Source: a virus
Length of the DNA: 64,000 nucleotides
Reading direction: 5' to 3' (one strand)
Virus record (IMG/VR): IMGVR_UViG_3300008952_002488
Location: 32,001-96,000 of that record
The first letter of the stretch is position 1, and every line of letters begins with the position of its first letter. The position numbers were made by a program, and so were the translations under genes. The notes under the pieces are model-generated. The model did not search any database, had not been told where the DNA came from, and was given only the letters and a program-made list of their open reading frames with translations. This document shows positions 6,454-57,990 of the stretch, piece by piece.

Positions 6454-6484
6454 GCCTAGATAATTATTATAGGAGTCTTTACTT

Positions 6485-11993: not shown

Positions 11994-12053
11994 TTGGCCG
12001 CCAACCCGCAGGGAGGCACGGGGTACAGGTGTCTCTCCATTTATGGAGATAAA

Positions 12054-13124
12054 ATGGCAAACAAAGCTGGAAACAGCCTTGTAAATGATTTGCGAAGCGA
12101 ATTAAACAAGGCTGCCAAAGAGAATATTGCATACGATTTGCACGGGGACAACCCGACAGACGTGAAGACTTGGATCCCAACGGGTTCGACTCTTCTTGAT
12201 TATATTATTTCTAACCGCCGAGATGGCGGCATTCCTGTCGGCAAACTCACCACGATTGCCGGCGAGTCTGCCAGCGGTAAGAGCCTTGTTGTCACGCAGA
12301 TTTTGGCGAACACACAAAAGATGGGAGGGCTCGCTGTTTACATCGACACAGAGAACGCAGCCTCCCCGGACTTCATGGAACAGTTGGGGCTTGACACCAA
12401 GAACAATTTCTTGTATGTGCAGCCCGGCACGGTCGAGGAAGTGTTTGAGAACATTGAGCGATTGATTGGGCGCATCCGTGAGAAAGCCCCAGACAAACTT
12501 GTTTGTATTGTTTGGGACAGCGTTGCGGGAACACCAGTCAAGGCAGAGGTTGAGGGTGACTATGATCCCAACAGTCGCATTGGTCTGACAGCCAAAGCAC
12601 TAGCCAAGGGTATGCGGAAAGTAACCGAAACGCTCGGCAAGGAGCAGATTGCTCTGGTTTTTACCAACCAGTTAAAGACCAACATCGGCGTGATGTTCGG
12701 AGACAACCGAGTGGAGCCCGGCGGAAAGGCTCTGCCCTATCACGCTTCTGCTCGCATCTGGTTGACCCAACACAAAGGCAAAGCCAATGGACAGATACTA
12801 AACGACAAGAAACAGGTCATCGGCTTCCATACGAGTGCCAAGACCATGAAGTCTCGCTTCGGTCCATCACCAAGGAGTTGTGAGTTTGATGTATTGTTTG
12901 ACCTTGCTAATGACCGAGTTGGAGTTAATGATGAGGGCTCCTGGCTTTCTGCCATCGCTGGTACGCCTGGTTGTGTTCGCAGCGGTGCTTGGTATACAAT
13001 CAACGTTGACGGGGAAGATAAAAAGTTCCAAAGTAAGGACTTTCTAAAACTTCTGGAAGACAAGAAATTCAAAGAAAGAGTTCTTGACATTTTAGAAGAC
13101 GAATGTAGAATAGGTAAGAAGTAA
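12054..13124 (+). CDS. recA: RecA/UvsX recombinase
   Basis: IPTGS..LD, Walker A GESASGKS, YIDTE, IVWDSV, FTNQL, PGGKALPYHASARI. Start moved to ATG 12054 (SD GGAG). Confidence 0.93.
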   Translation: MANKAGNSLVNDLRSELNKAAKENIAYDLHGDNPTDVKTWIPTGSTLLDYIISNRRDGGIPVGKLTTIAGESASGKSLVVTQILANTQKMGGLAVYIDTENAASPDFMEQLGLDTKNNFLYVQPGTVEEVFENIERLIGRIREKAPDKLVCIVWDSVAGTPVKAEVEGDYDPNSRIGLTAKALAKGMRKVTETLGKEQIALVFTNQLKTNIGVMFGDNRVEPGGKALPYHASARIWLTQHKGKANGQILNDKKQVIGFHTSAKTMKSRFGPSPRSCEFDVLFDLANDRVGVNDEGSWLSAIAGTPGCVRSGAWYTINVDGEDKKFQSKDFLKLLEDKKFKERVLDILEDECRIGKK

Positions 13125-20050: not shown

Positions 20051-23000
20051 ATGACTAACCGAATTGAAAGTAAGATCCCCTTTGTGGGGTTACATGCTCA
20101 CTCAGGCTTATCTCCTTTCGATGGGCTAGGTATGCCCGGCGAGCACATGGACTTCGCCTACGAGAACGGGATGAACGCTCATGCTCTAACAGACCATGGG
20201 CACATGAATGGCTTGTCGTTTCAGGTAGAGCATCTCAAAAAGATGCGAGCCGACGGCAAAGATTTTAAAGCTTTGTACGGGTGTGAGTCTTATTTTATTA
20301 AGTCACACAAGAAGTGGCGTAAAATGTATGAGGAGCACCGCTCCAAAGTTAAGCGCCAAAAGAAGGAAGAGTACGGGCTTGTTATCGAAGATGAGGACCG
20401 GCAAAAGAAATTCAACCCTTTGAATATTCGCCGCCATCTCGTAATGATTGCCCAGAACCAGACAGGGCTAAACAACTTATTCAAGCTAGTGTCGGATAGT
20501 TATCAGCCTGAAAACTTCTATCGGTATCCCCGTATGGACTTTGAGATGCTGGACAAATACAATGAGGGTCTGATTATCAGCAGCGCCTGCATGTCGGGTC
20601 CTCTGTTTGGAGACTTCTGGAAGCATCGAGACCCTGACACGGGGGCCTACGACGCCGATGTAGTCTTGGCATCAATGAGAGACACTATTGCCCGCTTTAA
20701 GGAGATCTTCGGGGATAGATTTTACGGAGAAGTCCAGTGGAATGATATCATTGAGCAACATCAAGGTAACGCCCTCATTATTCAAGCCTGCGTGGAAATG
20801 GGCGTAGAGGTTATCAGCACAGCCGACAGCCACTACCCCCGACCAGAACTTTGGAAAGACCGAGAGATGTACCGCCGCATCGGCGGACAGTGGTGGGGTG
20901 ATGATGATGGGCTTCCCGAATCAGTAGAGGAAGTTGGCTACGAACTCTACCCAAAGAACGGTGACCAGATGATGGAAGCCTATAAAAAATATTCAGCTAA
21001 ATATAATATTGAATACGATGATGCCTTCATCCGTGATACAATTGAGCGGACACACCACATCGCCTTTGGCCGATGTGAGGACTTTGTTCCCAACAGCGAG
21101 GTTCGCCTCCCAGAGTTTGTTGTACCCGAAGGCAAGACAGCCATTCAGGCTCTGACCTCCGACGCTCTTGCGGGAATGAAGAAAAAGAATATCACAGACC
21201 CCGAGTATGTGGACCGTCTGAAGTACGAACTAAACATCATCAAGGAGCGAGGCTTCGCCCAATACTTCCTGACGATGAAAGCCATCTCGGATAAAGCCCA
21301 GGAGGAAATGCTGGTCGGACTCGGACGAGGTTCAGCCGCTGGCTCACTCCTGTCTTATGTCCTAGACATTACCCAGGTGGACCCAATCAAATATCAATTA
21401 CAGTTTGAGAGGTTCCTGACCAAGGGCGGCACGGGCTACCCCGACATTGACTTTGATGTTGAGGAGCCAATGGTTCTCAAGGAACAACTAGCAGAGGAGT
21501 GGGGCAAGACAACAGTGGTTCCCATCAGCAACTTCAACACGCTCCAACTCCGCTCACTCATCAAAGACATCGGCAAGTTTTATAATATCCCGTTCACCGA
21601 AGTGAACAAGGTGACTGGCGTAATGATGAGCGAAGCCACACCCCTAGCCAAGAAAGCGCACGGCCAAATCGCTGGCGTCTACACACCAACATTTGACGAG
21701 GTAAAAGAATACAGTGAAACCTTACAAGAGTTTTTTAGAAAGTACCCGGAGGTGGCTACTCATGTCGATAACCTCTTTGGCAATATGCGGAGTATTTCTC
21801 GGCACGCTGGTGGGGTGGTTGTTGCTGAAGACCTAGATAAACACATGCCGCTCATCAACTCCGGCGGTGTCATCCAAACACCGTGGAGCGAAGGTCAGAA
21901 CGTTAGACACCTTGAGCCCCTCGGCTTTATTAAGTTTGACCTGCTCGGCTTGTCAACTCTCCGTATGATTTCGGGAGCAATCCGCCACATCCTCAAACGC
22001 CATCAAGGTATCGAGGAGCCAACCTTCGAGCAGGTGAGAGATTATTATAATACTAATCTCCACCCAGACACGATTGACTTTGATAATCAGGAAGTCTGGC
22101 GTGAGGTATTCCACAAAGGCAAGTGGGCTGGCATCTTCCAGATGACTAACGGTGGAGCACAGCGGTTCTGCCAAGAAGCACAACCAGAATCCCTTTTGGA
22201 TTTTGCTGCGGTCACGGCTATTTTCCGCCCCGGTCCACTTAGCGCCAAGGCTCACAGCCTGTATGTTGCGAACAAGTCTAACCCTAGCCAAGTACACTAC
22301 GAGCACCCAATCATCAAAGAAGTTCTCGGAGATACATACGGGCTTCTGGTCTTCCAAGAGCAGTTGGCTATGCTCGCTCACAAGTTGGGTGATGACCTAT
22401 CGCTGGACGAGGGCAACCTGCTCCGCAAAGTCCTGACGAAAAAGGGAACAGGAAAAGATAATATCAAGACCAAACTTTATAATAAGTTTGTGAAGGGCTG
22501 CGGCAAACACGGACTCACCGAAGATGTAGCCAAGAACTTGTGGTCTAAGATGGAATACTTTTCAGGCTACGGCTTCAACTTATCACACGCTGTATCCTAC
22601 GGAGCCGTATCCTTTCAGTGTGCTTGGCTCAGTTATTATTATCCGGTTGAGTGGATGGCTGCGTTCCTAGACAAGGAACCAGAAGACAAGAAGGCAGGAG
22701 CAATCAACACAGCCAAGTCCTTTGGGTTTGAGATTGTCCCGCCAAGCGTCAACAAGTCAGGGCGAGTCTGGGAGATTGCCGAGGACGGCAAGACTTTGAT
22801 TCAGCCGCTCGCAGGCATCAAGGGTCTGGGCGACGCAGCGATTGACCAGATTGTAGCCAACCGACCCTTCAATAGTATTGAGGAGTTTATCTTCAACGAG
22901 AACATCACATACTCCAAACTCAACAAGAAGGCTTTGGATGTGCTGGTCAGGAGCAAAGCCCTTGACGAGTTGATGGACGACAGGTTTACAGGTCTTCGCC

Positions 23001-23461
23001 ACTTCTGGTCTGCCGTCGCTGTGGACAGGCCACGCAAGGAAAAGAACCTGCTGGAAAATATTGATGTCTACGCACCCGAGGGAGACTTCTCCGAAGAAGA
23101 GAAGTTGGAGCACTTCGCATCGCTCACAGGCATCTTCCCTATCCACGAGATCATGCCACAGGAAATCCAAGACAACCTGATGACCCGTGGCTGTCCGCCC
23201 ATCAGCGAGTACGACCCCGACCTCCAACTGGTCTGGTTCATTCCGAGGGAAGTGAAAATAAAGAAGACAAAGAACGGTAAGGAATACTGGGTCATCCACA
23301 CCACCGACAGCAACGCCTTTGATGCTCGCATCCGCTGCTGGGGGGTGAGAGATGACGACAAGATTTCCCTTAACAAAGTATACGTTGCTAACTTAGAATA
23401 TAACGAGAAGTGGGGTTTCAGCACCCGCTCGCTTAGAAGGACATTTAGGAGGCTCACTTGA
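20051..23461 (+). CDS. dnaE: DNA polymerase III alpha subunit
   Basis: PHP domain LHAHS/TDHG, GRGSAAGSL, catalytic PDIDFD, HAGGVV, KFDLLGL, YGFNLSHA; no intein. Confidence 0.97.
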   Translation: MTNRIESKIPFVGLHAHSGLSPFDGLGMPGEHMDFAYENGMNAHALTDHGHMNGLSFQVEHLKKMRADGKDFKALYGCESYFIKSHKKWRKMYEEHRSKVKRQKKEEYGLVIEDEDRQKKFNPLNIRRHLVMIAQNQTGLNNLFKLVSDSYQPENFYRYPRMDFEMLDKYNEGLIISSACMSGPLFGDFWKHRDPDTGAYDADVVLASMRDTIARFKEIFGDRFYGEVQWNDIIEQHQGNALIIQACVEMGVEVISTADSHYPRPELWKDREMYRRIGGQWWGDDDGLPESVEEVGYELYPKNGDQMMEAYKKYSAKYNIEYDDAFIRDTIERTHHIAFGRCEDFVPNSEVRLPEFVVPEGKTAIQALTSDALAGMKKKNITDPEYVDRLKYELNIIKERGFAQYFLTMKAISDKAQEEMLVGLGRGSAAGSLLSYVLDITQVDPIKYQLQFERFLTKGGTGYPDIDFDVEEPMVLKEQLAEEWGKTTVVPISNFNTLQLRSLIKDIGKFYNIPFTEVNKVTGVMMSEATPLAKKAHGQIAGVYTPTFDEVKEYSETLQEFFRKYPEVATHVDNLFGNMRSISRHAGGVVVAEDLDKHMPLINSGGVIQTPWSEGQNVRHLEPLGFIKFDLLGLSTLRMISGAIRHILKRHQGIEEPTFEQVRDYYNTNLHPDTIDFDNQEVWREVFHKGKWAGIFQMTNGGAQRFCQEAQPESLLDFAAVTAIFRPGPLSAKAHSLYVANKSNPSQVHYEHPIIKEVLGDTYGLLVFQEQLAMLAHKLGDDLSLDEGNLLRKVLTKKGTGKDNIKTKLYNKFVKGCGKHGLTEDVAKNLWSKMEYFSGYGFNLSHAVSYGAVSFQCAWLSYYYPVEWMAAFLDKEPEDKKAGAINTAKSFGFEIVPPSVNKSGRVWEIAEDGKTLIQPLAGIKGLGDAAIDQIVANRPFNSIEEFIFNENITYSKLNKKALDVLVRSKALDELMDDRFTGLRHFWSAVAVDRPRKEKNLLENIDVYAPEGDFSEEEKLEHFASLTGIFPIHEIMPQEIQDNLMTRGCPPISEYDPDLQLVWFIPREVKIKKTKNGKEYWVIHTTDSNAFDARIRCWGVRDDDKISLNKVYVANLEYNEKWGFSTRSLRRTFRRLT

Positions 23462-24009
23462 AGAAGTATCAAATCATTTATGCTGACCCACCCTGGGATT
23501 ACAAAGGACAACTTCAGCACACCGGCAAAGGTGGTCCTGATAGTGGAGGAGCAACCCGCCACTACGGCTGTATGAAGTTGCCTGAACTCAAGAAGCTTGA
23601 TGTTCCAAGTTTGTGCGACGATGACTGTTTGCTTTTCCTGTGGGCAACAAGCCCACACCTTGATCAAGCTATCGAACTTATGAAGGCGTGGGGATTCTCC
23701 TGGGCAACCGTAGGGTTTGTGTGGGACAAACAAAAAGTAAACCCCGGCTTCTATACGATGAGTCAAGTAGAACTATGCTTGATTGGCAAGCGTGGAAAGA
23801 TCCCCAAGCCAAGAGGAGCCCGCAACATCCGCCAACTGGTTTCAGAGATGCGAGGGAAGCACAGCGCCAAACCGGCGGAAGTAAGAAAAAGAATTGAGGA
23901 AATGTTCCCAGAGCAGAGCAAGATTGAATTGTTTGCTCGCCACGAAGTTGATGGCTGGGACTGTCACGGCGATGAAGTCGAAGCAGATATTATCTTGGCG
24001 GCGAGCTAA
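23458..24009 (+). CDS. MT-A70 family N6-adenine methyltransferase
   Basis: IIYADPPW, LFLWAT, HSAKP, KIELFAR. Confidence 0.92.
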   Translation: MKKYQIIYADPPWDYKGQLQHTGKGGPDSGGATRHYGCMKLPELKKLDVPSLCDDDCLLFLWATSPHLDQAIELMKAWGFSWATVGFVWDKQKVNPGFYTMSQVELCLIGKRGKIPKPRGARNIRQLVSEMRGKHSAKPAEVRKRIEEMFPEQSKIELFARHEVDGWDCHGDEVEADIILAAS

Positions 24010-24566
24010 TGAAAGACCAAACAAATTTATTTAATGTTGCTGATGAATGTTATGACTGCGGGTGTGATCTGAAACCAGCCTGCGCTGACCGAGAAGGAAA
24101 CAAAATGAAAGTAAGAGTCCAACGACTTCACAAGAACGCCAAGCTCCCTGTACGAGCACACCCAGCAGATGCCGGCATGGATTTGTTTTTTTGCCCAGCG
24201 CCACGGGACGACATCCCAAAGCAGATTGAGAGCGTCTTGCCTCATGGATCATCGCTCTTCCCGACTGGACTAAAGATTGAGGTACCAGAGGGATACATGC
24301 TGGAAATCAAGAACAAGTCTGGCATCGCTTCCAAGCGTGGTTTGGTCGTTGGAGCCTGTGTCGTGGACCGAGGATACACAGGAGAGATCTTCGTGAACCT
24401 TCACAACCCGAGTGACCGAACACAGACCCTCCACGCTGGTGACAAGATTGCCCAAGCCGTCTTCGTAAAGATTACCACGGATGTTCAGTTGGTGGAGTCT
24501 GACAGCATCTACGACGACGAAACCAGCAGGGGCGAAGGAGCCCTCGGTTCCACGGGAGACAGATAA
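24009..24566 (+). CDS. dut: dUTPase
   Basis: AGMDL, KSG, VVDRGYTGEI, IAQ, RGEGALGSTG. Confidence 0.95.
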   Translation: MKDQTNLFNVADECYDCGCDLKPACADREGNKMKVRVQRLHKNAKLPVRAHPADAGMDLFFCPAPRDDIPKQIESVLPHGSSLFPTGLKIEVPEGYMLEIKNKSGIASKRGLVVGACVVDRGYTGEIFVNLHNPSDRTQTLHAGDKIAQAVFVKITTDVQLVESDSIYDDETSRGEGALGSTGDR

Positions 24567-24630: not shown

Positions 24631-24658
24631 TTGACCTCTGCCCAGGGAATGGTATACT
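24631..24658 (+). promoter_or_regulatory. Sigma70-type early promoter
   Basis: TTGACC-N16-TATACT with extended TG. Confidence 0.65.
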
Positions 24659-24676: not shown

Positions 24677-24913
24677 GTGGCTACTGCATTATATCGTCTG
24701 GCGATTTTAGAATCTCAACCGATTCGAAACCCGAATGAACTACTAGAGTGGGACCGCCTACGCAAGTGGGTTCTAAGCGATGACCGACTGCTCCAGCAGT
24801 ACCGAGAGCAACGCTACTTTACCTGTGCGGATGAAATTACTAAAAACGAGATGGCTCCGAAAAATAATCGCTCCATAATTTCCAGATTTTTGAACTTTAT
24901 TTTCCGACGATAA
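24677..24913 (+). CDS. Hypothetical protein
   Basis: GTG start after SD GAGGAG, downstream of a promoter. Confidence 0.55.
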   Translation: MATALYRLAILESQPIRNPNELLEWDRLRKWVLSDDRLLQQYREQRYFTCADEITKNEMAPKNNRSIISRFLNFIFRR

Positions 24914-24916
24914 AAC

Positions 24917-24947
24917 TTGACAGACTGTCTTTCCATGATAATATAAT
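24917..24947 (+). promoter_or_regulatory. Sigma70-type early promoter driving the mini-gene array
   Basis: AAACTTGACA-N16-TAATAT(AAT), then SD GAGGAGAG. Confidence 0.75.
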
Positions 24948-24962
24948 CATGAGGAGAGAGCC

Positions 24963-25124
24963 ATGAAACCGAAGTTCAAGGAACTCATTAAAATTATCGT
25001 TGAGAACACTGACCCGTCTATGTCTCGCATGGAGGCATGGGAAGCGGTTGCTGTTGTCGTCCCAGAACTGACTTGGGAAAGTTTCAAACGCATTCAGCCC
25101 TTGGCGGAACGGAAGCGCAAGTGA
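24963..25124 (+). CDS. Hypothetical 53 aa protein (MKPKFKELIK...), not in ORF track
   Basis: Hand translation; strong SD; stop overlaps the next GTG. Confidence 0.65.
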   Translation: MKPKFKELIKIIVENTDPSMSRMEAWEAVAVVVPELTWESFKRIQPLAERKRK

Positions 25125-25321
25125 GCAACGAGTGGCGTAAAAACCTGAAGGTCGGCGACCTCGTTATGATGAGGTCAGACCATATGGCTATTCTTACAGA
25201 TGTCAACTGGCGCTCGGAAGATTCAGAGTATCCCCATGTTAAGTTGCGGTACACTGATGACGACAGCAACGGTAGCTGTAGTGCTTGGCGAGTCAAGGAG
25301 GTGTTGAGTGAGAGTCGGTGA
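25121..25321 (+). CDS. SH3/KOW-like mini-protein
   Basis: LKVGDLV...VKEVLSESR. Confidence 0.7.
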   Translation: MSNEWRKNLKVGDLVMMRSDHMAILTDVNWRSEDSEYPHVKLRYTDDDSNGSCSAWRVKEVLSESR

Positions 25322-25502
25322 TTTGGTAACGTTCCAGCACGAAATGGACAACTCAGTTTCTGGTGTTATTGTAAAAGTTTATGCCCCACCCAAAAGCCCA
25401 GCGGGCTATATGTGGTGCGACGTTCTCTGGAGCTTTATGCCCGGCAACTCCCCGTGTAAGCAACGCTGGTGTGAATTGGAGATTTTAAATGAAGCCGGGT
25501 GA
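25308..25502 (+). CDS. SH3/KOW-like mini-protein
   Basis: MRVGDLV..GVIV..DVLW..LEILNE. Confidence 0.7.
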   Translation: MRVGDLVTFQHEMDNSVSGVIVKVYAPPKSPAGYMWCDVLWSFMPGNSPCKQRWCELEILNEAG

Positions 25503-25659
25503 TTTAGTAAAAGTAACATGGCGTTTTGACACCCCCCGGCTGGGGCTCGTTCTAACAGATCCCGCTGCTGACTTCCCTCAAGTATTGGTTCGGTTGGGAT
25601 GTGGTCGTCGGGTATCTTTTGATTGCGATAGTGTGGAGGTGGTCCGTGAAGCCCGGTGA
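25489..25659 (+). CDS. SH3/KOW-like mini-protein, 56 aa, not in ORF track
   Basis: MKPGDLVKV..LGLVL..VEVVREAR (hand translation). Confidence 0.7.
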   Translation: MKPGDLVKVTWRFDTPRLGLVLTDPAADFPQVLVRLGCGRRVSFDCDSVEVVREAR

Positions 25660-25849
25660 TTTGGTAGACGTTTCCCACCGCCGCCGTGAGCGGCACGGGT
25701 ATGGTATTATTACCGAGGTGAGGTCTCGCCATCCCTATGATGACCGCAGCGAGGAACTTCTTGTTACGGTACATCACCCCAAGACAGGGAAGACAACAAA
25801 GTGGAGTTCGCATTGGGTGGAGGTGCTTAGTGAATCTAAAGCCAGGTGA
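25646..25849 (+). CDS. SH3/KOW-like mini-protein
   Basis: GTG start; KPGDLVDV..YGII..VEVLSE. Confidence 0.7.
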   Translation: MKPGDLVDVSHRRRERHGYGIITEVRSRHPYDDRSEELLVTVHHPKTGKTTKWSSHWVEVLSESKAR

Positions 25850-26042
25850 CTTAGTAGAGCCCAACTGGAGTGCTAGCGAAGTCCCCCACATCAAAGAGAG
25901 GCACGGTCGGCAACTGGGTCTTGTTCTTTCATATCCCGAAGTCAAAAACCACGGCACAACCTGTGTAAAAGTTAATTGGCTTGGCTACGAACTGGAAGAA
26001 TATTATTCTGTCCATCATTTGAGGTTGGTAGAAAATGAATAG
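25830..26042 (+). CDS. SH3/KOW-like mini-protein
   Basis: GTG start; NLKPGDLV..LGLVL..VKVNW..LRLVENE. Confidence 0.7.
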   Translation: MNLKPGDLVEPNWSASEVPHIKERHGRQLGLVLSYPEVKNHGTTCVKVNWLGYELEEYYSVHHLRLVENE

Positions 26043-26268
26043 ATATAACGGGGCAGAGTTCACATATAATATTGGCGACCTCGTGTCCTTTATGCAGCGT
26101 CGTGTGACCGAGGATTATGTTGATGACTTTTTGCTGACTGGCATTATAATCAGGGAGCGTTTTGTTTTTACTGCCGACAATAAGTTCTTGGTCAAGACTC
26201 CAGAAAAAGATTATTGGGTTTCAAGACCAGCCCTAACTTTACTTTCAAAGGCAGAAAATAAAACTTGA
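26035..26268 (+). CDS. SH3/KOW-like mini-protein
   Basis: YNIGDLV..GIII..LTLLS. Confidence 0.65.
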   Translation: MNRYNGAEFTYNIGDLVSFMQRRVTEDYVDDFLLTGIIIRERFVFTADNKFLVKTPEKDYWVSRPALTLLSKAENKT

Positions 26269-26295
26269 CAAGAGCCATAGTCATGTTAAGATACT
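26265..26295 (+). promoter_or_regulatory. Sigma70-type early promoter inside the array
   Basis: AAACTTGACA-N16-TAAGAT(ACT), then SD GGAGAGAG. Confidence 0.65.
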
Positions 26296-26309
26296 ATTGG
26301 AGAGAGCCT

Positions 26310-26543
26310 ATGAGCCTGGTAAAAGAAATCCAGAAACGCTGCCACATCCAGCCTGGTATGTTGGTCAGGAGCAGCGGAGGCAGCGAAATCAATAAACTTG
26401 CTTTGGTTGTCGGACTATCTCCCTCGTGTAAGTTTGACCGAGACTACGAAGGAGCAGAGGACCACATCTTCTACAAGTGCGAGCCTTTTGACGGCACGCC
26501 AGCCTTTGTAGACTACGCTTGTAACATGGAGCAGGTATCATGA
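26310..26543 (+). CDS. SH3/KOW-like mini-protein
   Basis: IQPGMLV..LALVV..MEQVS. Confidence 0.65.
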   Translation: MSLVKEIQKRCHIQPGMLVRSSGGSEINKLALVVGLSPSCKFDRDYEGAEDHIFYKCEPFDGTPAFVDYACNMEQVS

Positions 26544-26782
26544 AAGTCGGACAGATTATTAAAGTAAATAAGTCTGGTCTGGCTCATTTTGCTCCCGGCA
26601 TCCGCCGCAGGCTTGAAGGAGAGATTGGACTAGTTGTCCAGCAAAAGTACGAACTGGCTCACAAGCTCTTGAAGAATACCAAGGTCTATCCATCCATTGT
26701 CCGTTTTGAGGCTCTCAAAGGACTTGACATGTACGCAGACGGCGTTATGATATTTGATGACCAAGCGGAGATTTTATCATGA
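26540..26782 (+). CDS. SH3/KOW-like mini-protein
   Basis: MKVGQII..IGLVV..AEILS. Confidence 0.65.
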   Translation: MKVGQIIKVNKSGLAHFAPGIRRRLEGEIGLVVQQKYELAHKLLKNTKVYPSIVRFEALKGLDMYADGVMIFDDQAEILS

Positions 26783-26952
26783 AACTTGGAACACTAGTCC
26801 AGTTCGCAGCCTACGGGGCGGTCATGGATACTGGCTATGTTTCAAAGTATGATGAGGACCCAGGGTTCATGTGGGTAGAGTGCGTGAAGATGGGACCTCA
26901 GCGAGTCAGTAAAGACAGTACGATGTTGGAGGTGGTAAGTGAAGCCGGGTGA
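26779..26952 (+). CDS. SH3/KOW-like mini-protein, 57 aa, not in ORF track
   Basis: MKLGTLVQF..TGYV..LEVVSEAG (hand translation). Confidence 0.65.
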   Translation: MKLGTLVQFAAYGAVMDTGYVSKYDEDPGFMWVECVKMGPQRVSKDSTMLEVVSEAG

Positions 26953-27136
26953 TTTGGTTCGCATTCGCAAAACCTCTATTGACCATCTGTCTGCCAACTG
27001 GTTTATCTGGCACGCAGAGCACAAGACCCCGCTGGTTTTGATTGAAGAGCTAAACAAAAGTTATTGGAATGTGCTGAAGCCTGATGGCAGTACGGTACAC
27101 ATCCACAAAACCCACCTGACGAAGAGGATGTATTGA
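26939..27136 (+). CDS. SH3/KOW-like mini-protein
   Basis: MKPGDLVRIR. Confidence 0.7.
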   Translation: MKPGDLVRIRKTSIDHLSANWFIWHAEHKTPLVLIEELNKSYWNVLKPDGSTVHIHKTHLTKRMY

Positions 27137-27333
27137 TGAATCCCGAATGGAAAAGATATAAAGTCGGAGACTTGGTAGCGGTTGCTGCTAATCAAGTGCT
27201 GGGTCTTATCACTCGCTCCAACTACTGGGCTCTTGATGAATATCTCGGCGGTGAGATTGAGTGCGTTGATGTGATGTTCGGAGCACACGAATCCAAGCAA
27301 TACCCAGTTCAATATTTGGTGGACTTGAAGTAA
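27136..27333 (+). CDS. SH3/KOW-like mini-protein
   Basis: YKVGDLV..LGLI..VDVMF. Confidence 0.65.
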   Translation: MNPEWKRYKVGDLVAVAANQVLGLITRSNYWALDEYLGGEIECVDVMFGAHESKQYPVQYLVDLK

Positions 27334-27413
27334 TGAGCGAGCTAATCGGCGGCATCTTTTACGGCACTATCATCGGAGGCTACATCCTCTGGTTTTGGGG
27401 GCGCATCCGATGA
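27333..27413 (+). CDS. 26 aa single-TM micropeptide
   Basis: MSELIGGIFYGTIIGGYILWFWGRIR; TAATG and ATGA coupling to neighbours. Confidence 0.5.
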   Translation: MSELIGGIFYGTIIGGYILWFWGRIR

Positions 27414-27652
27414 AGACCTCCCCCCGCCAAGTTGAGTACCTACCTGACCACCACTTCAAGGTCGGCGATATCGTAAGGCGATTTGTAATCGGCGGTAAAG
27501 ACAGGCTCGGCGTTGTGCTGGGAACAGGAAAAAAGACGATGAACTACACGACATTACAAATGAATGAAGACGCCTGCCTAATATCTTTTGATAATGAAGA
27601 GCCAGTGTGGGAAGCGGCATATTTTCTGGAAAAAGTTGATGCCAAGTACTGA
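27410..27652 (+). CDS. SH3/KOW-like mini-protein
   Basis: FKVGDIV..LGVVL..LEKVD. Confidence 0.65.
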   Translation: MKTSPRQVEYLPDHHFKVGDIVRRFVIGGKDRLGVVLGTGKKTMNYTTLQMNEDACLISFDNEEPVWEAAYFLEKVDAKY

Positions 27653-27845
27653 TTTAAAGATTGGCACCCTGCTCCGAGTGAAGGAGCACTGCCGAAATAA
27701 TATAACCGTCAGGCATAATGGCGAGTATGGTATTCTGGCACGAAACGATAAGGGAAACTATATTACACACGATGTTATATTCCCCACTGGCGAGCGAGTT
27801 ATTTTTATGCCTATCAATTGGGAGGTAGTCAGCCATGCTGGATAG
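27639..27845 (+). CDS. SH3/KOW-like mini-protein
   Basis: LKIGTLL..YGIL..WEVVS. Confidence 0.65.
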   Translation: MPSTDLKIGTLLRVKEHCRNNITVRHNGEYGILARNDKGNYITHDVIFPTGERVIFMPINWEVVSHAG

Positions 27846-28104
27846 CAGCGATAAGATGTGGGCGGTTCAACAGCCTGGAACTATTTTACGAGCCCGTCAT
27901 AGTGCTAAGTACGGACAACTGGCTCTGGTTCTTGCCCGAGCCTATGATGGCCCGAAGCCAAGCAACGGCTATCCCCCCCGCCAGTATGTGAAGATGCAGT
28001 GGCTCTCAACTGGCGAGCGGTTTGAAGAAATGTTAGTAAATGCTCATAATTGTTTTGACATTGTGAGTTCCTGTGATACACTATCCAACAAGGAGGAAGT
28101 ATGA
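27835..28104 (+). CDS. SH3/KOW-like mini-protein
   Basis: QPGTIL..LALVL..VKMQW. Confidence 0.6.
   Translation: MLDSSDKMWAVQQPGTILRARHSAKYGQLALVLARAYDGPKPSNGYPPRQYVKMQWLSTGERFEEMLVNAHNCFDIVSSCDTLSNKEEV
28055..28082 (+). promoter_or_regulatory. Sigma70-type promoter
   Basis: TTGACA-N16-TACACT with TG, then SD AAGGAGG. Confidence 0.6.
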
Positions 28105-28268
28105 AACTATCGCTTAACACTAAAGTCGTAGATGACAAAACTGGGCTGGAGGGTCGGACTATTGGGCCTTTCACTCGCAAGGGAGAGCAGTGGTGGACTG
28201 TCTATTGGCGAAACGGTCAGACAACCTCCCAACGAGAAGAGGATCTCAACCAGTGTCAAACAATTTAA
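28101..28268 (+). CDS. SH3-like mini-protein, 55 aa, not in ORF track
   Basis: MKLSLNTKVVD..EGRTI..WTVYW..EEDL; strong SD. Confidence 0.65.
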   Translation: MKLSLNTKVVDDKTGLEGRTIGPFTRKGEQWWTVYWRNGQTTSQREEDLNQCQTI

Positions 28269-29446
28269 CGAAAAAAGCTGAACTCGTTGCCGAAATGGAA
28301 GCAGGAATTAAGGTAGCTGAGGAGTTTGAGAAGGCTGGTGCGTTTTACGGAGACTCCAAAGACCTGCGGCAAGAAAAGGACCGAGAAGTCGCAGAGTTCT
28401 CTCAGACGCTAAACGATGGGCAAAGAATCAAGTTCCAGAAGGAACTGGACAGACTAGAGCTTCTATCCCGTTCGAGCGGGGCGAGCATCGCCACGTCTAT
28501 ACTTTCGTTGGACGCCTATATCAAAGGGAAGAGTAAAGTAAAAGTGGAGTTCTGGGGTCGGGAGGGGCTCAAAGAAGGGGTTGGACAAAAGACCGACCTA
28601 AAGACAACTCTCATCAACCCCAATCTCGACGAGATGGTTTATAGCTTTTCCCTGAAACAGTACCGTAGGTCCGGACGCATTCAGGTTGGATCGGGCACCT
28701 ATTTGTCCACCTTTCTGGGGCTAGCGTATGACGTTGCTGGGCGAGGACGTTACCAGTCCCATGATAAAGAGCGGACTTTTGGCTCGAAAGGGAAATGCGA
28801 AGATGCCCGAGCCGAGATCCTCAAAGATTACGGCGTGGAATCTGCCAAGCTTTTGGATGAACTGGTGATTTTAACCGCTGGCGTAGCGGCCCTTCGTGGC
28901 AATAAAGTGTATCCGGGTGATGACTGGTGGAAAAAGAAATGTAAGGGTTTTACAGAATCGGCTGTTCCCATTTTTGAAAAATGGTTTAATTTCTTGCTTG
29001 AGCACGACCAAGATAAATTTATAGAACGTATTTTTCACCGAGCCGGTCTCGGGTGCGAGCATGAAACGGTGGTGACTTTCTGCCAAAACGGCGAGCCCCG
29101 GACCCTGAACACCTTGAGTGATCCGACGTTTGCGAAGACTATGAAAATTGGAAAAATTCCGATCAACCAACTCGAAGTGGAGACTAAGAGGTCCGGACAG
29201 GGTGAGGACGGGTGCAGCATTGATGTGAGGTTGCATCATACAACCTCCGGAAAGAGTTCGCCTTTAATGGAGTTGCAAATTCCCTTCACCCTCAATCGTA
29301 ATGGGGCATGGCAGTTGTGCAATGAAGCAGGGCGTTGGTGTAAAAAGGACAAGCAATTTGTTGAGTTTGGACACTTGCGCCCGGAAAAGTCTAAAGAATT
29401 GGCCACATCCACAAATATGTGGCTGAAAGTGCCTTTGGGCAAATAG
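28253..29446 (+). CDS. Putative PD-(D/E)xK restriction-type endonuclease
   Basis: QKTDLK...SFSLKQY pattern; directly upstream of a DNA MTase; GTG start after GAAGAGGA. Confidence 0.55.
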   Translation: MSNNLTKKAELVAEMEAGIKVAEEFEKAGAFYGDSKDLRQEKDREVAEFSQTLNDGQRIKFQKELDRLELLSRSSGASIATSILSLDAYIKGKSKVKVEFWGREGLKEGVGQKTDLKTTLINPNLDEMVYSFSLKQYRRSGRIQVGSGTYLSTFLGLAYDVAGRGRYQSHDKERTFGSKGKCEDARAEILKDYGVESAKLLDELVILTAGVAALRGNKVYPGDDWWKKKCKGFTESAVPIFEKWFNFLLEHDQDKFIERIFHRAGLGCEHETVVTFCQNGEPRTLNTLSDPTFAKTMKIGKIPINQLEVETKRSGQGEDGCSIDVRLHHTTSGKSSPLMELQIPFTLNRNGAWQLCNEAGRWCKKDKQFVEFGHLRPEKSKELATSTNMWLKVPLGK

Positions 29447-29467
29447 CGACGTGGAGGGGACAGTAAA

Positions 29468-30904
29468 GTGAGACGTGTAGTTGTGGGTAACCCCCCTTTT
29501 CAAAACCGGGAAAAGCAAGGGAAAACCCAACATAAAGTGTGGATCAAAATGACTCAGACTATCTTTGACCAAATGGACGAAGGAGACATTTTGCTGTGGA
29601 TAAGCCCTCAGAGTTGGTCATCGCCTAGCAATAAAATATTAAAGCTGATGAGGGAAAATCAGGTTAACTATGTGTCTCTCAATACCGACGAATACTTTGA
29701 GGGAATTGGTTCCTCGTTTAGTGACTACTCTATCACAAAAACTTCCGCACCCTCTGCGAACCCTACGCTAGTGTCGGATCGCAACCACACCCCGTGTCAT
29801 ATTGCTTTTAAAGATCTTTTTTATCTTCCTAACGATGTGTGTGCGCTGTCATTATCTATTCACAATAAGGTTATGTTTGGGGGCTGTGATTGTTTGGATG
29901 TTCGGCATGATTATGTAACCAATCATAATATTTTGTTACGGACAGGAACAACGCTTTCCAAGACTCCTACCTCACAACACATTTATCCAGTATTTCACAC
30001 TAATCGTCAAACATGGTATTCATCTCTCGAACAAAAGTGCATGACCGAGAAGAAGGTAGTGTGGACCCGGAGCGGATATCTTAAACCATTTTATGATGAC
30101 GGGACGATTGGAATAACGGACATGGCTTATTATATTCCCGTTAAATCTCGCACCAAGGGGGACCGGCTCGTAGAGAACCTGTCTTCTCCGCTGATGAAAT
30201 ATATCTTCACAACCGCTAAGTGGTCTGGTTTTGGAAACGAGCGAGTGTTTGAGCGGTTGCCTGCGGCGCTAGCCTCTCTCCGGAAAGAGGATTTGGCGGA
30301 TCACTTTAATCTGACATCCGACGAAGTGGCTTACATAGAAGAAGAGAGTTGGCGCAAGAAGCCCACGAAGGAGCTTCTTCTTGGTGGAGATTATACGGTC
30401 AAAACCCAAGGCAGGTCGGATATTTACGGAGAAGTGTTTACTCCGCCGGAGTTAGTAAATAAGATGCTTGATAAACTCCCACCGGAGGTCTGGGATCATT
30501 ATGATGAGCCTTGGACTTTTCTTGATCCGGCATGTGGTAATGGTAATTTTTTAGTAGAAGTTCTTCGGCGTCAGCTTGACGCAGGTGTTTTGCCTGCCAC
30601 CGCCCTTGGTTCTGTTTATGGTATTGATATAATGCCGGACAATGTGCTGGAGTGCAGGCAACGCCTTCTTTCCGTGGCTCTCCAGGCGCACATGGAGAGA
30701 GAAGAGGAGGCGAAGAGAGCGAACCCTGATGCTGTTTCTTGCCCATCTGCCGTGACCAAATTATACCTAATAGTGACTGAGCGCATTGCGGTGGCTAATA
30801 GTTTAGAAGATTCTTTGGAGGATGTCTTCCCCTACAGTCCGGACCCAGGGTTCGACTTCTGCGCCAACCGCCACCGCACCCAAAACGAAGGACCCTCAGA
30901 ATGA
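29468..30904 (+). CDS. N6/N4 DNA methyltransferase (Eco57I-like), circularly permuted
   Basis: NPPF at residue ~8; GEVFTP, FLDPACGNGNF and YGIDI lie in the C-terminal third; SD GGAGGGG. Confidence 0.85.
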   Translation: MRRVVVGNPPFQNREKQGKTQHKVWIKMTQTIFDQMDEGDILLWISPQSWSSPSNKILKLMRENQVNYVSLNTDEYFEGIGSSFSDYSITKTSAPSANPTLVSDRNHTPCHIAFKDLFYLPNDVCALSLSIHNKVMFGGCDCLDVRHDYVTNHNILLRTGTTLSKTPTSQHIYPVFHTNRQTWYSSLEQKCMTEKKVVWTRSGYLKPFYDDGTIGITDMAYYIPVKSRTKGDRLVENLSSPLMKYIFTTAKWSGFGNERVFERLPAALASLRKEDLADHFNLTSDEVAYIEEESWRKKPTKELLLGGDYTVKTQGRSDIYGEVFTPPELVNKMLDKLPPEVWDHYDEPWTFLDPACGNGNFLVEVLRRQLDAGVLPATALGSVYGIDIMPDNVLECRQRLLSVALQAHMEREEEAKRANPDAVSCPSAVTKLYLIVTERIAVANSLEDSLEDVFPYSPDPGFDFCANRHRTQNEGPSE

Positions 30905-39843: not shown

Positions 39844-41430
39844 ATGAATGATGACCACATCTTGTTTGGTGATGAAATTAGACAGAAGCTTCTTTCTGGT
39901 GCTAATAAATTGACTGATGCGGTGGCTTCGACTCTTGGACCTCGTGGGCAAAATGTAATTCTCTATAGACGTGGTGCTGACCCTGTTATCACAAAGGATG
40001 GCGTAAGCGTTGCCCGTGTTGTAGAACTTGACGACGATTACGAGCAAGCAGCAGTGGAGGTGCTTCGCCAAGCAGCCCTCCAAACAGAAAAGACGAGTGG
40101 CGATGGCACAACGACCAGTACTGTTTTGGCTCGTGCCATACTGCTAGCAGCCAACAAGCACATTGCTGCCGGTGCCTCATCTACTGATATCAAGAGAGGG
40201 ATTGATGCAGCAGTTGAGGCAATATGTGACAGGATTACAGAACTCGCACAGCCAGTTTCCAGCGAGGAAGAGATCCGACATGTTGCAACAGTTTCTGCCA
40301 ACGGCGATGAGGCTATAGGGGCATTGATTGCCGAGGCAGTGGCTGCCGCAGGAAAAGACGGGTCTATCACCATTGAGGAAAGCCGTTCCCTGAAAACTAT
40401 TCTGGATGTTGTTGAGGGCTTCCGCTTCGATGGCGGCTTTGTCTCTCCACAGTTTGTAACAGACCAGAGGCGTGCAGTTATAGAATATAGAGATGCCCTC
40501 GTGTTTGTGACCGACGAGACTTTAGACAATGTTGAGGAGATGCTGTCAATTTTAGAGGTGGTGGCTCGTGATGGTCGCCCCTTTGTTATTGTGGCGGAAG
40601 AGATTGAGGGTCAACTTCTTGCGGCATTGATTATGAATCGTATGCGAAATGACATGAAGATTGCCGCAGTCAAGGCACCCAAGTACGGCGAAGAGCGACG
40701 CAGCCTTCTGGAGGATATTGCGCTGGTTACGGGAGCCACCTTCGTCAGCAAAGATAGTGGTATCAGACTCAGGGATGTCAAGCTGGAGCACCTGGGGTCT
40801 GTGAAAAGAATAGAGATCAGCAAGAGACGGACTATCTTATCTGACAGCGACGTTGACTATGGGGAATTAGAAAAAAGAGTAGAGTCCCTCACCGCTCTTA
40901 TGGAAGACACAGAAGACCTCAAGGAAGCCGAAGCAATCCAAGAGAGAATAACAAGACTTCAGTCTGCCGTCGCCGTCGTTCGCATCGGAGGAGCAACAGA
41001 AATCGAAGTCACAGAAAAGAAACACAGAGTTGAGGACGCCTTAGAGGCAGTCAGGTCAGCACAAGAGGAGGGGATTGTTCCTGGCGGCGGCACAGCTTTG
41101 ATAAAAGCTGCTCATGCGGTAAGGGTTGAGCTAGCCAACGAGGACGAACTTCGGGGCGCTCAAGCTCTAGCAGAAGCGTGTACGGCTCCAATGAAACAGA
41201 TACTCAAGAATGCAGACGTGTCCTCGGACCTAGTGATAAATACCCTTCCTCATGATGAAGAGAGTCTTAATGTTGGCTTTAATGCTAGGACTGAAAACTT
41301 TGAAGATTTAATCGAGTCGGGCGTCATCGACCCAGCAAAAACTGTGAAGTGTGCGTTACAAAACGCCGCTAGCGCAGCGGGAACGCTGCTCACAACTAAT
41401 TGTGCTGTTTTAAAGAAAGGTGGTGAATAA
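39844..41430 (+). CDS. groEL: Chaperonin GroEL
   Basis: TLGPRG, ITKDGVSVA, GDGTTT, KAPKYG, GIVPGGG, GVIDP. Confidence 0.97.
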   Translation: MNDDHILFGDEIRQKLLSGANKLTDAVASTLGPRGQNVILYRRGADPVITKDGVSVARVVELDDDYEQAAVEVLRQAALQTEKTSGDGTTTSTVLARAILLAANKHIAAGASSTDIKRGIDAAVEAICDRITELAQPVSSEEEIRHVATVSANGDEAIGALIAEAVAAAGKDGSITIEESRSLKTILDVVEGFRFDGGFVSPQFVTDQRRAVIEYRDALVFVTDETLDNVEEMLSILEVVARDGRPFVIVAEEIEGQLLAALIMNRMRNDMKIAAVKAPKYGEERRSLLEDIALVTGATFVSKDSGIRLRDVKLEHLGSVKRIEISKRRTILSDSDVDYGELEKRVESLTALMEDTEDLKEAEAIQERITRLQSAVAVVRIGGATEIEVTEKKHRVEDALEAVRSAQEEGIVPGGGTALIKAAHAVRVELANEDELRGAQALAEACTAPMKQILKNADVSSDLVINTLPHDEESLNVGFNARTENFEDLIESGVIDPAKTVKCALQNAASAAGTLLTTNCAVLKKGGE

Positions 41431-43957: not shown

Positions 43958-44261
43958 AGTTTCAGAAGTATATGAAAAACAAGTTAAAACATTTAAGGAG
44001 CGCCCCGACGGCTCTGAGTTTGTTAGTTTTGAAAAGATTTATGACACACGAGAGTGTTTACTAAACACGGAATATGTTGTTTCTATCCACCCTCATGAAT
44101 TTACAACTTCTGTGGATCATAGTAGGTTGGAGGGTAGATTTCCCGAAGGGACAAAGTTCTGTACCTTCGTGCTAGATGGCAATTCTTTTCGCTCATCTGA
44201 AATTGTCGTGGTTGGGTCTTTTCAAAAGTTTTGTCGGCTGTTGCAGGAAAATGACTCATGA
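43950..44261 (+). CDS. Hypothetical protein (FlbD-like pattern)
   Basis: LLNTEYVVSI..IVVVGS; SD GGAGGT. Confidence 0.55.
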   Translation: MLKVSEVYEKQVKTFKERPDGSEFVSFEKIYDTRECLLNTEYVVSIHPHEFTTSVDHSRLEGRFPEGTKFCTFVLDGNSFRSSEIVVVGSFQKFCRLLQENDS

Positions 44262-47962: not shown

Positions 47963-48175
47963 ATGTTAAAAGTTGGAGATCTCGTTAAAGAGTGTGTTCC
48001 GCTAATGGCGGGCGATGTTCCCGAGCGGCTTGGTGTTATCCTAGAGGAGCCACACTCGTCTGCCCTCAAATGGTATAAAGTTTTATTTGACAAGCCCGAA
48101 ATGATTCATTGCAACGCCTTGAGGAAAGTGGAGACTTTTTCGGGGGAAACGAATAATATTTCAGCAAAAGAGTAG
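47963..48175 (+). CDS. SH3/KOW-like mini-protein
   Basis: MLKVGDLV..LGVIL..YKVLF..LRKV. Confidence 0.7.
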   Translation: MLKVGDLVKECVPLMAGDVPERLGVILEEPHSSALKWYKVLFDKPEMIHCNALRKVETFSGETNNISAKE

Positions 48176-56674: not shown

Positions 56675-56854
56675 ATGGAAAATAATAAAATCCTCATCAA
56701 TCGTATCAATGAGACAGACCAAAGTTGGGGATCATTACCTCCACTCATTCTGGCTGCTTATGATGTTCTTCTAGAAGAGGACACCTTTTGGGATCCGGTA
56801 ACACACGGTACCTATCCTCTCCCAGTTTGGTGGCAGTCCTTGGGGAATGCCTAG
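56675..56854 (+). CDS. 59 aa hypothetical protein, not in ORF track
   Basis: MENNKILINRINE.. after AAGGA; stop coupled to the next GTG. Confidence 0.6.
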   Translation: MENNKILINRINETDQSWGSLPPLILAAYDVLLEEDTFWDPVTHGTYPLPVWWQSLGNA

Positions 56855-57078
56855 TGAAGGCTGGAGATTTGGTAGAAGTAAAAAAGAATGCATCTATTAT
56901 ATCTCTAAGAGGATCTGTTGGCATCATTGTCCAATACCTCGGGAAAGCTCTAACAGGAGATCCAGACGTTCTAGAACATGGCTGCTCTTATTATGAAGTT
57001 AACATAGCTGCCAGCGGCAATCAAATCTTAAAAGAAACAGAACTCAACCTAATACCAAGGGAAGAAAGAAAAAAATGA
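56854..57078 (+). CDS. SH3/KOW-like mini-protein
   Basis: KAGDLVEV..VGIIV..YEVNI..LNLI. Confidence 0.65.
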   Translation: MKAGDLVEVKKNASIISLRGSVGIIVQYLGKALTGDPDVLEHGCSYYEVNIAASGNQILKETELNLIPREERKK

Positions 57079-57278
57079 AAGTTGGAGACTTAGTAGAGTT
57101 TTCCTATGGAAGAGTAGGAGGACAGATTGGCGGCATTGGAGTGCTCGCAGAAATGGGCTACCATGGCAGGCATAGAGTTTTGTTCATGGGGAAAGCTTAT
57201 TGGGTGCCAGATGCCTGCATTACTAAACTTGTCATAAAAAGGAGTGAAGATAAAAATGACAAACACAAACTCAACTAA
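57075..57278 (+). CDS. SH3/KOW-like mini-protein
   Basis: [18 protein letters not shown]. Confidence 0.7.
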
Positions 57279-57450
57279 CAACACAGAGCTATATACTAGC
57301 ATCATGAAATACGAGCAAGGAGAGTTGGACAAGAAGCAAACCATTAAACTCTTCCAAGAGCTAGTTGACAGCGGGCTTGCATGGAACTTACAAGGGCACT
57401 ATGGGCGCACAGCTTACGATATGATCCAAGAAGGACTAATAAAGGCATGA
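57256..57450 (+). CDS. Conserved small phage protein
   Basis: [31 protein letters not shown] motif. Confidence 0.7.
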
Positions 57451-57499
57451 GCAGTGAAATTGCGGGAAAACATTTAAGCGGCGCATGGGGAACCGTTCG

Positions 57500-57709
57500 G
57501 TGAAGGTTGGGGATATTGTCCAGCGCCGTAGGCATGGGGGATCTTTCCAGCATCCTCGTGCAAGTGACCGCAAGCAGGAGATCGGTCTCGTTGTTGAGGT
57601 TCTAGCCGAGCAAGGCAGTGTTCCTCAGCTTCGAGTGCAGTTCCCCAGCAATCCCGATAAACCCTTATGGTTTTTTAGCCATCAGGTTCGGAAGGTTTCG
57701 AATGATTAA
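57500..57709 (+). CDS. SH3/KOW-like mini-protein
   Basis: KVGDIV..IGLVVEV..RVQF..VRKVS. Confidence 0.65.
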   Translation: MKVGDIVQRRRHGGSFQHPRASDRKQEIGLVVEVLAEQGSVPQLRVQFPSNPDKPLWFFSHQVRKVSND

Positions 57710-57768
57710 TATATTGGCATACTCTTTCGCCGTAAGGGCGTGCTTTGCCAGCCAAGAAGGGATATACT

Positions 57769-57990
57769 TTGAGCAGAGACTTTAAGGTTGGCGATCTTGT
57801 TCGGGTTAGGAAGGGTTCGGAAGTCTTCCGTGATCTGCCTGCTACTGCCGGCTTAGTACTGGTCACGAACGAGTTGCCAACTAGTCCCCGATTCTTTTAT
57901 GGCGTTGTCTGCTCTACTGGCGAGGAACACCTTTGGAGCTATGATCAGTTCTTGTTAGTTTCCAAAGCTAATGGTGATAAAAATTTCTAG
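57769..57990 (+). CDS. SH3/KOW-like mini-protein
   Basis: FKVGDLVRV..AGLVL..LLVS; start uncertain. Confidence 0.6.
   Translation: MSRDFKVGDLVRVRKGSEVFRDLPATAGLVLVTNELPTSPRFFYGVVCSTGEEHLWSYDQFLLVSKANGDKNF

Follow-up and report, generated by a model that had tools for sequence, protein, structure and literature searches.

How a phage may carry a long run of very small and dissimilar genes, and gain, lose or rearrange single members of that run while the operon stays intact, is the question raised by a block of mini-genes at 24917-28268 of the stretch of viral DNA analysed here. This stretch, referred to below as the window, comprises 64,000 nucleotides (nt) and represents bases 32001-96000 of the 171,926-base-pair viral record IMGVR_UViG_3300008952_002488 of IMG/VR, which is ~60% complete according to CheckV. 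A capsid protein of the T4 Gp23 type (E 1e-62) is encoded by the record, all long open reading frames (ORFs) of the window are on the plus strand, and the source of the window is a large uncultured marine T4-type phage. The block is hyperplastic and holds 12-15 genes of 55-89 codons that belong to a single uncatalogued family; they are designated u1 to u15, and the chain is headed by a further small gene, g0 (Table 1). Our reading, to which we assign a probability of roughly 0.8, is that neighbouring units are chained as cassettes by a joint that is read in two frames, and that recombination between joints shuffles whole units.

Within the block the joint is recognisable as a near-repeat at the border between consecutive units. 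The five junction strings quoted in the initial annotation of this DNA were each found once, exactly at 25297, 25478, 25635, 25819 and 26928, and the two regularities claimed for them were borne out, in that GGAGGT (once GGAGAT), the Shine-Dalgarno (SD) sequence, begins 11 nt 5' of the start codon in each joint and that the overlap of the two genes measures 14 nt in four of them (u1/u2, u2/u3, u3/u4 and u9/u10). The overlap at u4/u5 is 20 nt long owing to two extra codons. A degenerate joint pattern gave four matches in the window as compared to none in 100 shuffles, and no direct repeat other than the joint exceeds two copies in 24900-28300; its repetition is far beyond chance. A further joint, u12/u13, also has a 14-nt overlap, with a sequence unrelated to the canonical joint. 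The spacing is -4 nt in four cases, including g0/u1, and -1, -8, -11, +41 and +76 nt at the remaining borders. Of the 14 unit-to-unit joints, 12 are overlaps of 1-20 nt, and g0 and u1 overlap by 4 nt.

The same joint recurs well beyond the window. In IMG/VR more than 119 stretches fit the joint pattern, where ~0.2 chance matches would be expected by our own estimate from information content, which is not a computed control, and a hidden Markov model (HMM) of the family recovered at least 893 units in at least 126 loci, with up to 25 units in one 15-kilobase (kb) locus. Among the loci listed, adjacent units are spaced at -14 nt 353 times and at -4 nt 43 times, an excess that is biased upward because most of the IMG/VR loci, whose number is a lower bound as is that of the units, were gathered by the joint pattern itself; 165 of the -14 joints in these loci fall outside the scan pattern, and four loci found without the pattern gave -14 versus -4 in a ratio of 13 to 2. 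When 1.8 billion representative proteins were searched with a family profile, 53 matches were obtained, mostly of ~60 amino acids (aa), which start MKVGDLV and end LEV[IV]SE[SA]R. The units are highly diverse in sequence, as the 830 distinct units of the loci listed form 567 clusters at 50% identity, and only 5% of neighbouring pairs have a BLASTP match, for which reason the arrays are not recent tandem duplications. The pooled ratio of non-synonymous to synonymous differences per site (pN/pS) of the window units against a relative, contig L001, is 0.29 as compared to 0.05 for the adjoining dUTPase gene, indicating that the units are real genes under relaxed purifying selection. No Pfam model was reached by the window units or by 51 family members, KOW models (PF00467 and relatives) being matched neither by 10 window units at E<=1 nor by the 51 family members at E<=0.05; PHROGs gave no match to units or family members, and SH3_15 (the Mind bomb SH3 repeat, PF18346) was reached by none of the 51 small family members; the long proteins that the family profile also finds match the SH3_15 (E 7e-71 and 6.5e-41), DUF1918 or PsaE models. 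A literature search found no description of this family or of the joint. Among the gene families of ocean phages that are still uncatalogued, it seems to rank with the larger ones.

The consensus of 325 distinct -14 joints, T-G-G-A-G-G-T-N-A-T-[C/A]-A-[A/G]TG-AAA-GTC-GGT-GAT-TTG-GT, reads L-E-V-I-[S/N]-E-S-R-stop in the upstream frame and M-K-V-G-D-L-V in the downstream frame, the upstream tail [S/N]-E-[S/A]-[R/G]-stop being the other frame of the M-K-[V/P]-G-D of the next gene. This four-residue tail is confined to joints of the -14 type, those of the -4 type lacking it, and of the tailed units for which no neighbour was detected 85/89 precede an ORF at -14 that starts [MV]K.G. The best-conserved columns of the family alignment, residues 1-7 and 58-65, are the parts encoded by the joint, and the joint-encoded segments constitute strands 1 and 5 of the structural model of u4. 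The last strand of the upstream protein, a predicted small barrel, is written L-E-V-[VIL] in the codons xTG GAG GTN, which thereby provide the SD sequence GGAGGT at a distance of 11 nt from the start that follows. From there the reading frame of the upstream gene extends 14 nt into the next gene and ends at the TGA within its Gly-Asp codons, so that the upstream tail and the downstream M-K-[V/P]-G-D are two readings of the same bases. As the units are otherwise unrelated at the DNA level, the joint (~31 nt, above all ATGAAAGTCGGTGATTTGGT) is the only homology between them, and according to the mechanism that we propose recombination from joint to joint would remove, add or reorder whole units, with each neighbour keeping an intact start, stop and ribosome site. 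Such recombination would be driven by homology, possibly through the RecA/UvsX-type enzyme of the phage.

It had been proposed at the outset that the joint is at once ribosome-binding site, start, stop and fold motif, and that its synonymous positions should be checked for over-conservation; codon usage bears on both points. The motif Glu is encoded by GAG in 274 and by GAA in 9 cases (n=283), as compared to 989 GAG and 1262 GAA (44% GAG) in unit bodies, a contrast with a Fisher p of ~1e-76 over cases that are not independent, and the Leu before it is mostly TTG or CTG. Since GGAGGT needs GAG, this excess reveals constraint exerted by the SD site. The joint also contains a plug segment, ATGAAAGTCGGTGA, with the plug codons AAA, GTC and GGT, and in the 118 units for which an upstream overlap is impossible Lys2 is still AAA in 78%, Val3 GTC in 53% (20% in bodies) and Gly4 GGT in 72% (30% in bodies). 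Joint similarity therefore extends beyond amino-acid constraint, as both SD and plug codons are biased, the latter even where no upstream gene overlaps. The GAG bias and the edge strands of the modelled barrel (residues 6-11 and 58-62) support the multiple roles that had been attributed to the joint. The same data bear on the notion that the mini-genes are domains of a multi-barrel polyprotein made through programmed frameshifting at every joint, for which the existence of fused multi-repeat relatives (for example three repeats in a protein of 301 aa, and long SH3_15-repeat proteins) may be cited. A start codon lies exactly at profile position 1 in 764 of the 893 units listed (ATG 476, GTG 269), the SD sequence is kept by synonymous bias, a different shift would be needed for each joint type (-14, -20, -4, -1, -8, -11, +41 and +76), and no slippery motif is common to the joints, so that we regard frameshifting on this scale as having a negligible chance of being correct.

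Comparison with relatives established that the arrays differ in whole units. Across u2-u6 the window shares 91-95% identity with two contigs from metagenomes, L001 and L002, and in L001 two extra units (61 and 63 aa) are present and g0 is absent. The 63-aa unit corresponds to a 178-nt indel between two joints, joint 2 of the window being a chimera of both with the crossing within GGTGATTT, and the similarity between the window and L001 sets in abruptly at the start codon of u2. Synonymous divergence (dS) against L001 amounts to 0.52 for the dUTPase (window 24009-24566) and to 0.05-0.27 for array units (25308-26268), and because the unit values are below that of the dUTPase the common ancestry of the array segment with L001 is younger than that of the flanking dUTPase, as in a mosaic. 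In the pair L021 and L023, with 99.5-100% identity, the sole difference in unit content is one unit of 176 nt, which is flanked on both sides by the 20-mer ATGAAAGTCGGTGATTTGGT, and reordered units with segment ends that overlap by 19-31 nt were observed for L056/L115, L017/L063 and L075/L116. In four more distant relatives (L040, L120, L121 and L125; DnaE 88-91% identity) u1, u5, u7, u10, u13 and u14 are kept collinear and the other units differ, with two larger genes inserted in L121. When BLAST segment ends inside units were counted for all pairs of at least 85% identity, 57 of the 111 internal ends fell in the interval from -10 to +25 nt around unit starts versus 24% expected at random, a figure whose weight is lessened by the ability of conserved joints to attract such ends and by the compared pairs not being independent. 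Gain, loss and reordering of units at joints, as envisaged in the initial annotation, are thus supported by the chimeric joint against L001, the L021/L023 indel, the clustering of breakpoints and the differing unit sets; where a fixed gene order, breakpoints unrelated to joints and joints explained by amino-acid constraint had been named as contrary outcomes, gene content was found to vary, breakpoints to cluster at joints and joint similarity to exceed that constraint. Neighbouring units might instead be subunits of a hetero-oligomeric assembly, the proportions of which would be fixed by the overlaps through coupled translation. An obligate complex would not tolerate such unit turnover, however, and the single-unit differences between near-identical phages, the varying unit sets of close relatives and the occurrence of the same 63-aa unit beside different neighbours in L001 and L040 render this explanation very improbable.

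Besides the upward bias of the -14 excess, several points weigh against the view that recombination between joints shuffles the units. Canonical joints account for only 5 of the 14 borders among u1-u15 (four of 14 nt and the 20-nt variant), and 6/15 units of the window array are weak members of the family. Coupling of translation is reported to weaken as overlaps grow beyond 4 nt (review PMC12548453), and therefore the strong SD sequence may matter more than reinitiation. The structural matches of the barrel do not single out a function. Exact repeats at the two resolved indels extend over only 8-20 nt, which is short for a classical RecA-type exchange and suits replication slippage or illegitimate joining equally well, and selection against broken ORFs alone would also leave breakpoints at gene borders. 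In a passive scenario the joint would be kept by its two frames, the ribosome site and shared ancestry, illegitimate recombination or slippage would occur anywhere, and only those indels that preserve ORFs would survive. This would accord with the shortness of the repeats and with the fact that nearly all bases of the 14-nt overlap are a first or second codon position in some frame; gene borders are, moreover, the usual mosaic boundaries in phages. The strong bias of the plug codons in the 118 units that no upstream gene can overlap argues against it, as do the clean chimeric joints, formed through shared sequence at both resolved indels, and the 19-31-nt overlapping BLAST ends at the reordered units of L056/L115 and L075/L116, and we consider this scenario unlikely.

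If shuffling between joints is accepted, the joint may further be regarded as a selected recombination device, by which marine T4-type phages would build up, prune and swap combinatorial libraries of small early binders, in integrase-free cassettes with a standard plug, directed against host defences or at host takeover. Every unit would then carry the plug (SD, start, stop and first strand), and the retention of plug codons also in units that no upstream gene overlaps would reflect selection on the DNA itself. We advance this extension tentatively, as a proposition more probably wrong than right.

A common SH3-like barrel, which had been put forward from sequence motifs, is in keeping with the models obtained, and the units are predicted to be SH3-like small barrels of five strands. 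The AlphaFold2 model of u4 (from 51 sequences) is a five-strand barrel (strands 6-11, 15-27, 38-44, 49-54 and 58-62) with a pLDDT (predicted local distance difference test) score of 86.5 and a low-confidence or disordered tail, while that of u7 (from 5 orthologues) consists of a helix and five strands (pLDDT 78.6). The u4 model aligned with the eS4 KOW and Tudor domains at template modelling (TM) scores of 0.64-0.71, its best matches were PsaE (Z 8.5), the Spt5 KOW domain (Z 8.3) and the PHF19 Tudor domain (Z 8.2), and its neighbours by Foldseek (best E 0.027) and VIA-align were KOW, Tudor, PsaE, NdhS, PetP and R67-DHFR barrels; u7 matched the same KOW/Tudor/PsaE set at Z 6-7.4. A sequence-profile search of the PDB returned nothing significant, the top entries being Spt5 KOW and uL24 at E 0.026-0.08. 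The nearest models in BFVD are proteins of uncultured marine viruses, and the nearest ESM Atlas clusters are viral hypothetical proteins, with one row at a score of 0.90, DsrB, being a lead only. As no structural match rises above the others, function is not transferable from the fold. A complex prediction for u3 and u4, run without controls, scored 0.01 and counts neither for nor against binding. We infer that the barrels serve as binding modules that have diversified to target macromolecules of the host or the phage; a role in host takeover or anti-defence is possible, though we hold it to be less likely than not.

The block is organised in two sub-operons, each headed by a sigma-70-like promoter motif. 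The motif TTGAC[AT], 13-14 nt, TGnTAATAT is present at sub-array heads of the window (24631-24658, 24917-24944, 26265-26292 and 28055-28082) and likewise in L001, L040, L120, L121 and L125; promoter-like sites number 18 as compared to 9.0 in shuffles (standard deviation 3.0), and no terminator-like site was found on the plus strand in 24917-28268. The likeness of these sigma-70-like motifs to T4 early promoters suggests early transcription by the host RNA polymerase. The copy at 28055-28082 lies inside u14, and its 28 nt are identical in L125, with two bases of the -10 element differing in L120. The units are co-directional ORFs that overlap or lie close together, with the SD sequence inside the upstream ORF, which is the structural arrangement of coupled pairs, and from this sequence layout we infer that translation of neighbouring units is linked.

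Membership of the family was called strong at an HMM E<1e-6, and weaker candidates were graded by hhalign probability. Of the ~14 members initially counted in the array, 9 pass the HMM (E 2e-07 to 2e-19), membership is probable for u8, u12 and u14, with an hhalign probability of 85-94%, and possible for u6, u7 and u15 (27-40%), whereas the ORF at 24963-25124, g0, proved to be no member. The further claim of ~12 members elsewhere in the window held for five significant matches, starting at 47963, 56854, 57075, 57500 and 57769, the rest (~5) being weak; E values for the second cluster are 6.6e-05 (56854-57078), 4.1e-04 (57075-57278), 9.4e-06 (57500-57709) and 2.0e-13 (57769-57990). In u1 a 9-residue N-terminal extension precedes KVGDLV and is common to the orthologues in L001, L040, L120, L121 and L125. 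The last of these carries two u1-type copies (6361-6733 on the minus strand, equal to 7003-7375 in reverse-complement coordinates), 58% and 52% identical to u1 of the window and separated by two other units. The orthologues of the divergent u6 in L040, L120 and L125 do match the family HMM (E down to 5e-07), and u9 is present among the relatives only in L120. Orthologues of u7 in L040, L120, L121 and L125 share 60-74% identity with it and are far better conserved than the neighbouring units, with three invariant cysteines and an invariant DYEGAE.HIFY stretch. A 260-aa protein at 44258-45040 is family-like over its last ~50-80 residues (KPGTLV ... QMEVVNEV; HMM E 0.001, with residues 210-260 aligned) and its N-terminal ~180 residues have no Pfam match; judging from its sequence, this protein possibly represents the barrel in fused form. 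A minus-strand ORF of 183 aa at 25406-25957, across u2-u5, was judged spurious and is probably not a gene, as it amounts to only 104 aa in L001 and L002.

Table 1. Positions in the window of the joints, array units, further family members and associated elements
Feature	Position	Strand	Remarks
Promoter motif, sigma-70-like (TTGACA, 16 nt, TAATAT, with TG)	24917..24944	+	Head of first sub-operon
Promoter motif, sigma-70-like	26265..26292	+	Head of second sub-operon
Joint 1	25297..25327	+	SD GGAGGT, GTG start 11 nt on, TGA of upstream gene within GGTGAT, 14-nt overlap
Joint 2	25478..25508	+	GGAGAT SD variant, ATG start, 14-nt overlap; chimera of L001/L002 joints
Joint 3	25635..25665	+	14-nt overlap
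Joint 4	25819..25855	+	SD and GGTGA stop unchanged, two extra codons, 20-nt overlap
Joint 5	26928..26958	+	14-nt overlap, 91% identical to joint 3
g0, 53-aa non-family gene heading chain	24963..25124	+	hhalign against family 0.2%; no counterpart in L001
u1, 66 aa, GTG start, 4-nt overlap with g0	25121..25321	+	HMM E=2.6e-09
u2, 64 aa	25308..25502	+	HMM E=6e-18; 91% nt identity to L001/L002
u3, 56 aa	25489..25659	+	HMM E=6e-15; dN/dS 0.20 against L001
u4, 67 aa, modelled unit	25646..25849	+	HMM E=1.8e-19; AlphaFold2 pLDDT 86.5
u5, 70 aa	25830..26042	+	HMM E=9.2e-11; orthologues in 4/4 distant relatives
u6, 77 aa, divergent, 8-nt overlap with u5	26035..26268	+	hhalign 39.5% over 60 columns
u7, 77 aa, possible divergent member, N-terminal helix, conserved cysteines	26310..26543	+	hhalign 27%
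u8, 80 aa, probable member, 4-nt overlap (ATGA)	26540..26782	+	hhalign 89.4%; L040 orthologue HMM 1.7e-05
u9, 57 aa, 4-nt overlap on 5' side	26779..26952	+	HMM E=1.1e-12
u10, 65 aa	26939..27136	+	HMM E=5.9e-12
u11, 65 aa, 1-nt overlap (TGATG)	27136..27333	+	HMM E=2.2e-07
u12, 80 aa, probable member	27410..27652	+	hhalign 93.8%
u13, 68 aa, 14-nt overlap with u12, non-canonical sequence	27639..27845	+	HMM E=2.3e-14
u14, 89 aa, probable member, 11-nt overlap	27835..28104	+	hhalign 84.7%; orthologues match HMM
u15, 55 aa, doubtful member, 4-nt overlap	28101..28268	+	hhalign 40% over 19 columns
Outlying family member	47963..48175	+	HMM E=2.1e-05
Second cluster, four members	56854..57990	+	Family HMM
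RecA/UvsX-type recombinase of phage	11994..13124	+	PF00154 E=1e-43 at G000 44135-44902; context only

The record also codes for DnaE, DnaB, a class II ribonucleotide reductase and GroEL, the GroEL-type chaperonin and the DnaE-type polymerase III alpha subunit being encoded at 39844-41430 and 20051-23461 of the window, respectively. Immediately 5' of the mini-gene block lie genes for an MT-A70 methylase and the dUTPase; the dUTPase ORF has an N-terminal extension of ~32 residues (24009-24130) with a C-x2-C-x-C-x5-C pattern, and this extension is kept in L001. On the 3' side (28190-30904) a 418-aa protein without Pfam match is followed by a 478-aa N6-adenine methylase (MmeI/Eco57I-like), and at this position the relatives differ, L121 and L040 having a protein of 609-614 aa and L120 and L125 no more than one of 172 aa; the region is a second variable island adjoining the array. 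A search for related loci with the 418-aa protein found no relative. Among GenBank phages, blastn and megablast gave no match to the array or to 20 kb of the window, tblastn with one family member (P0020) gave none either, and the closest phage DnaE is at most 31% identical. psbA (PF00124) was not found in the genome record, which says little about the host since the record is only ~60% complete.

Under the reading preferred here, a stretch of ~30 nt would encode protein in both frames and at the same time supply translation signals and a site for recombination, and the joint system would show how gene turnover in the hyperplastic regions of phages can leave operons intact. Such ORFs are often missed by gene callers or given a wrong start, and one L001 unit went uncalled. 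If it is true that the barrels bind host factors or defence proteins, the arrays would represent a ready-made natural library of small scaffolds.

Several known systems invite comparison. The boundary or linker sequences of lambdoid phages are short homologies at gene borders that were proposed, in the modular theory, to guide module exchange; they differ from the joint in that they join unrelated functional modules and have no fixed dual-frame overlap repeated within one operon. Integron cassettes are small promoter-less ORFs that are individually mobile and are gained or lost singly at a repeated site. By analogy only, the present array likewise consists of small ORFs added and lost one by one, but its site lies within both coding sequences and exchange presumably proceeds by general recombination; neither an attC-type imperfect inverted repeat nor an integrase was seen, although no search was aimed at attC or IntI. 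The five-strand fold is shared with SH3-like barrels such as the KOW domains of Spt5/NusG, uL24 and eS4 and with Tudor, PsaE, NdhS, SH3_15 and DUF1918, whereas no unit reaches any Pfam or PHROG model. With regard to overlapping genes, the common prokaryotic spacings are -4, -1 and -8 (review PMC12548453), and four joints of the block (three unit-to-unit and g0/u1) are of the ordinary -4 NTGA coupled type, whereas the -14 overlap that is fixed across the family is not among the common types of that review. The nearest described system is the modular shuffling mediated by PeSL (promoter-early stem-loop), a short conserved repeat between small non-essential genes in the variable regions of T4-type genomes, between copies of which whole genes are inserted, deleted or replaced among closely related phages (Arbiol et al. 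2010, PMC2839356; Comeau et al. 2014, PMC4122927). As with PeSL, the related phages compared here differ by gene indels or replacements bounded by copies of the repeat (L001, L021/L023 and the breakpoints). PeSLs are non-coding units of a strong sigma-70-like promoter and a stem-loop terminator between ORFs, whereas the joint is coding in two frames and forms no stem-loop, the promoter-like motifs stand at the heads of sub-arrays and not within the joints, and the joint itself holds the SD sequence, start and stop and links the members of one protein family.

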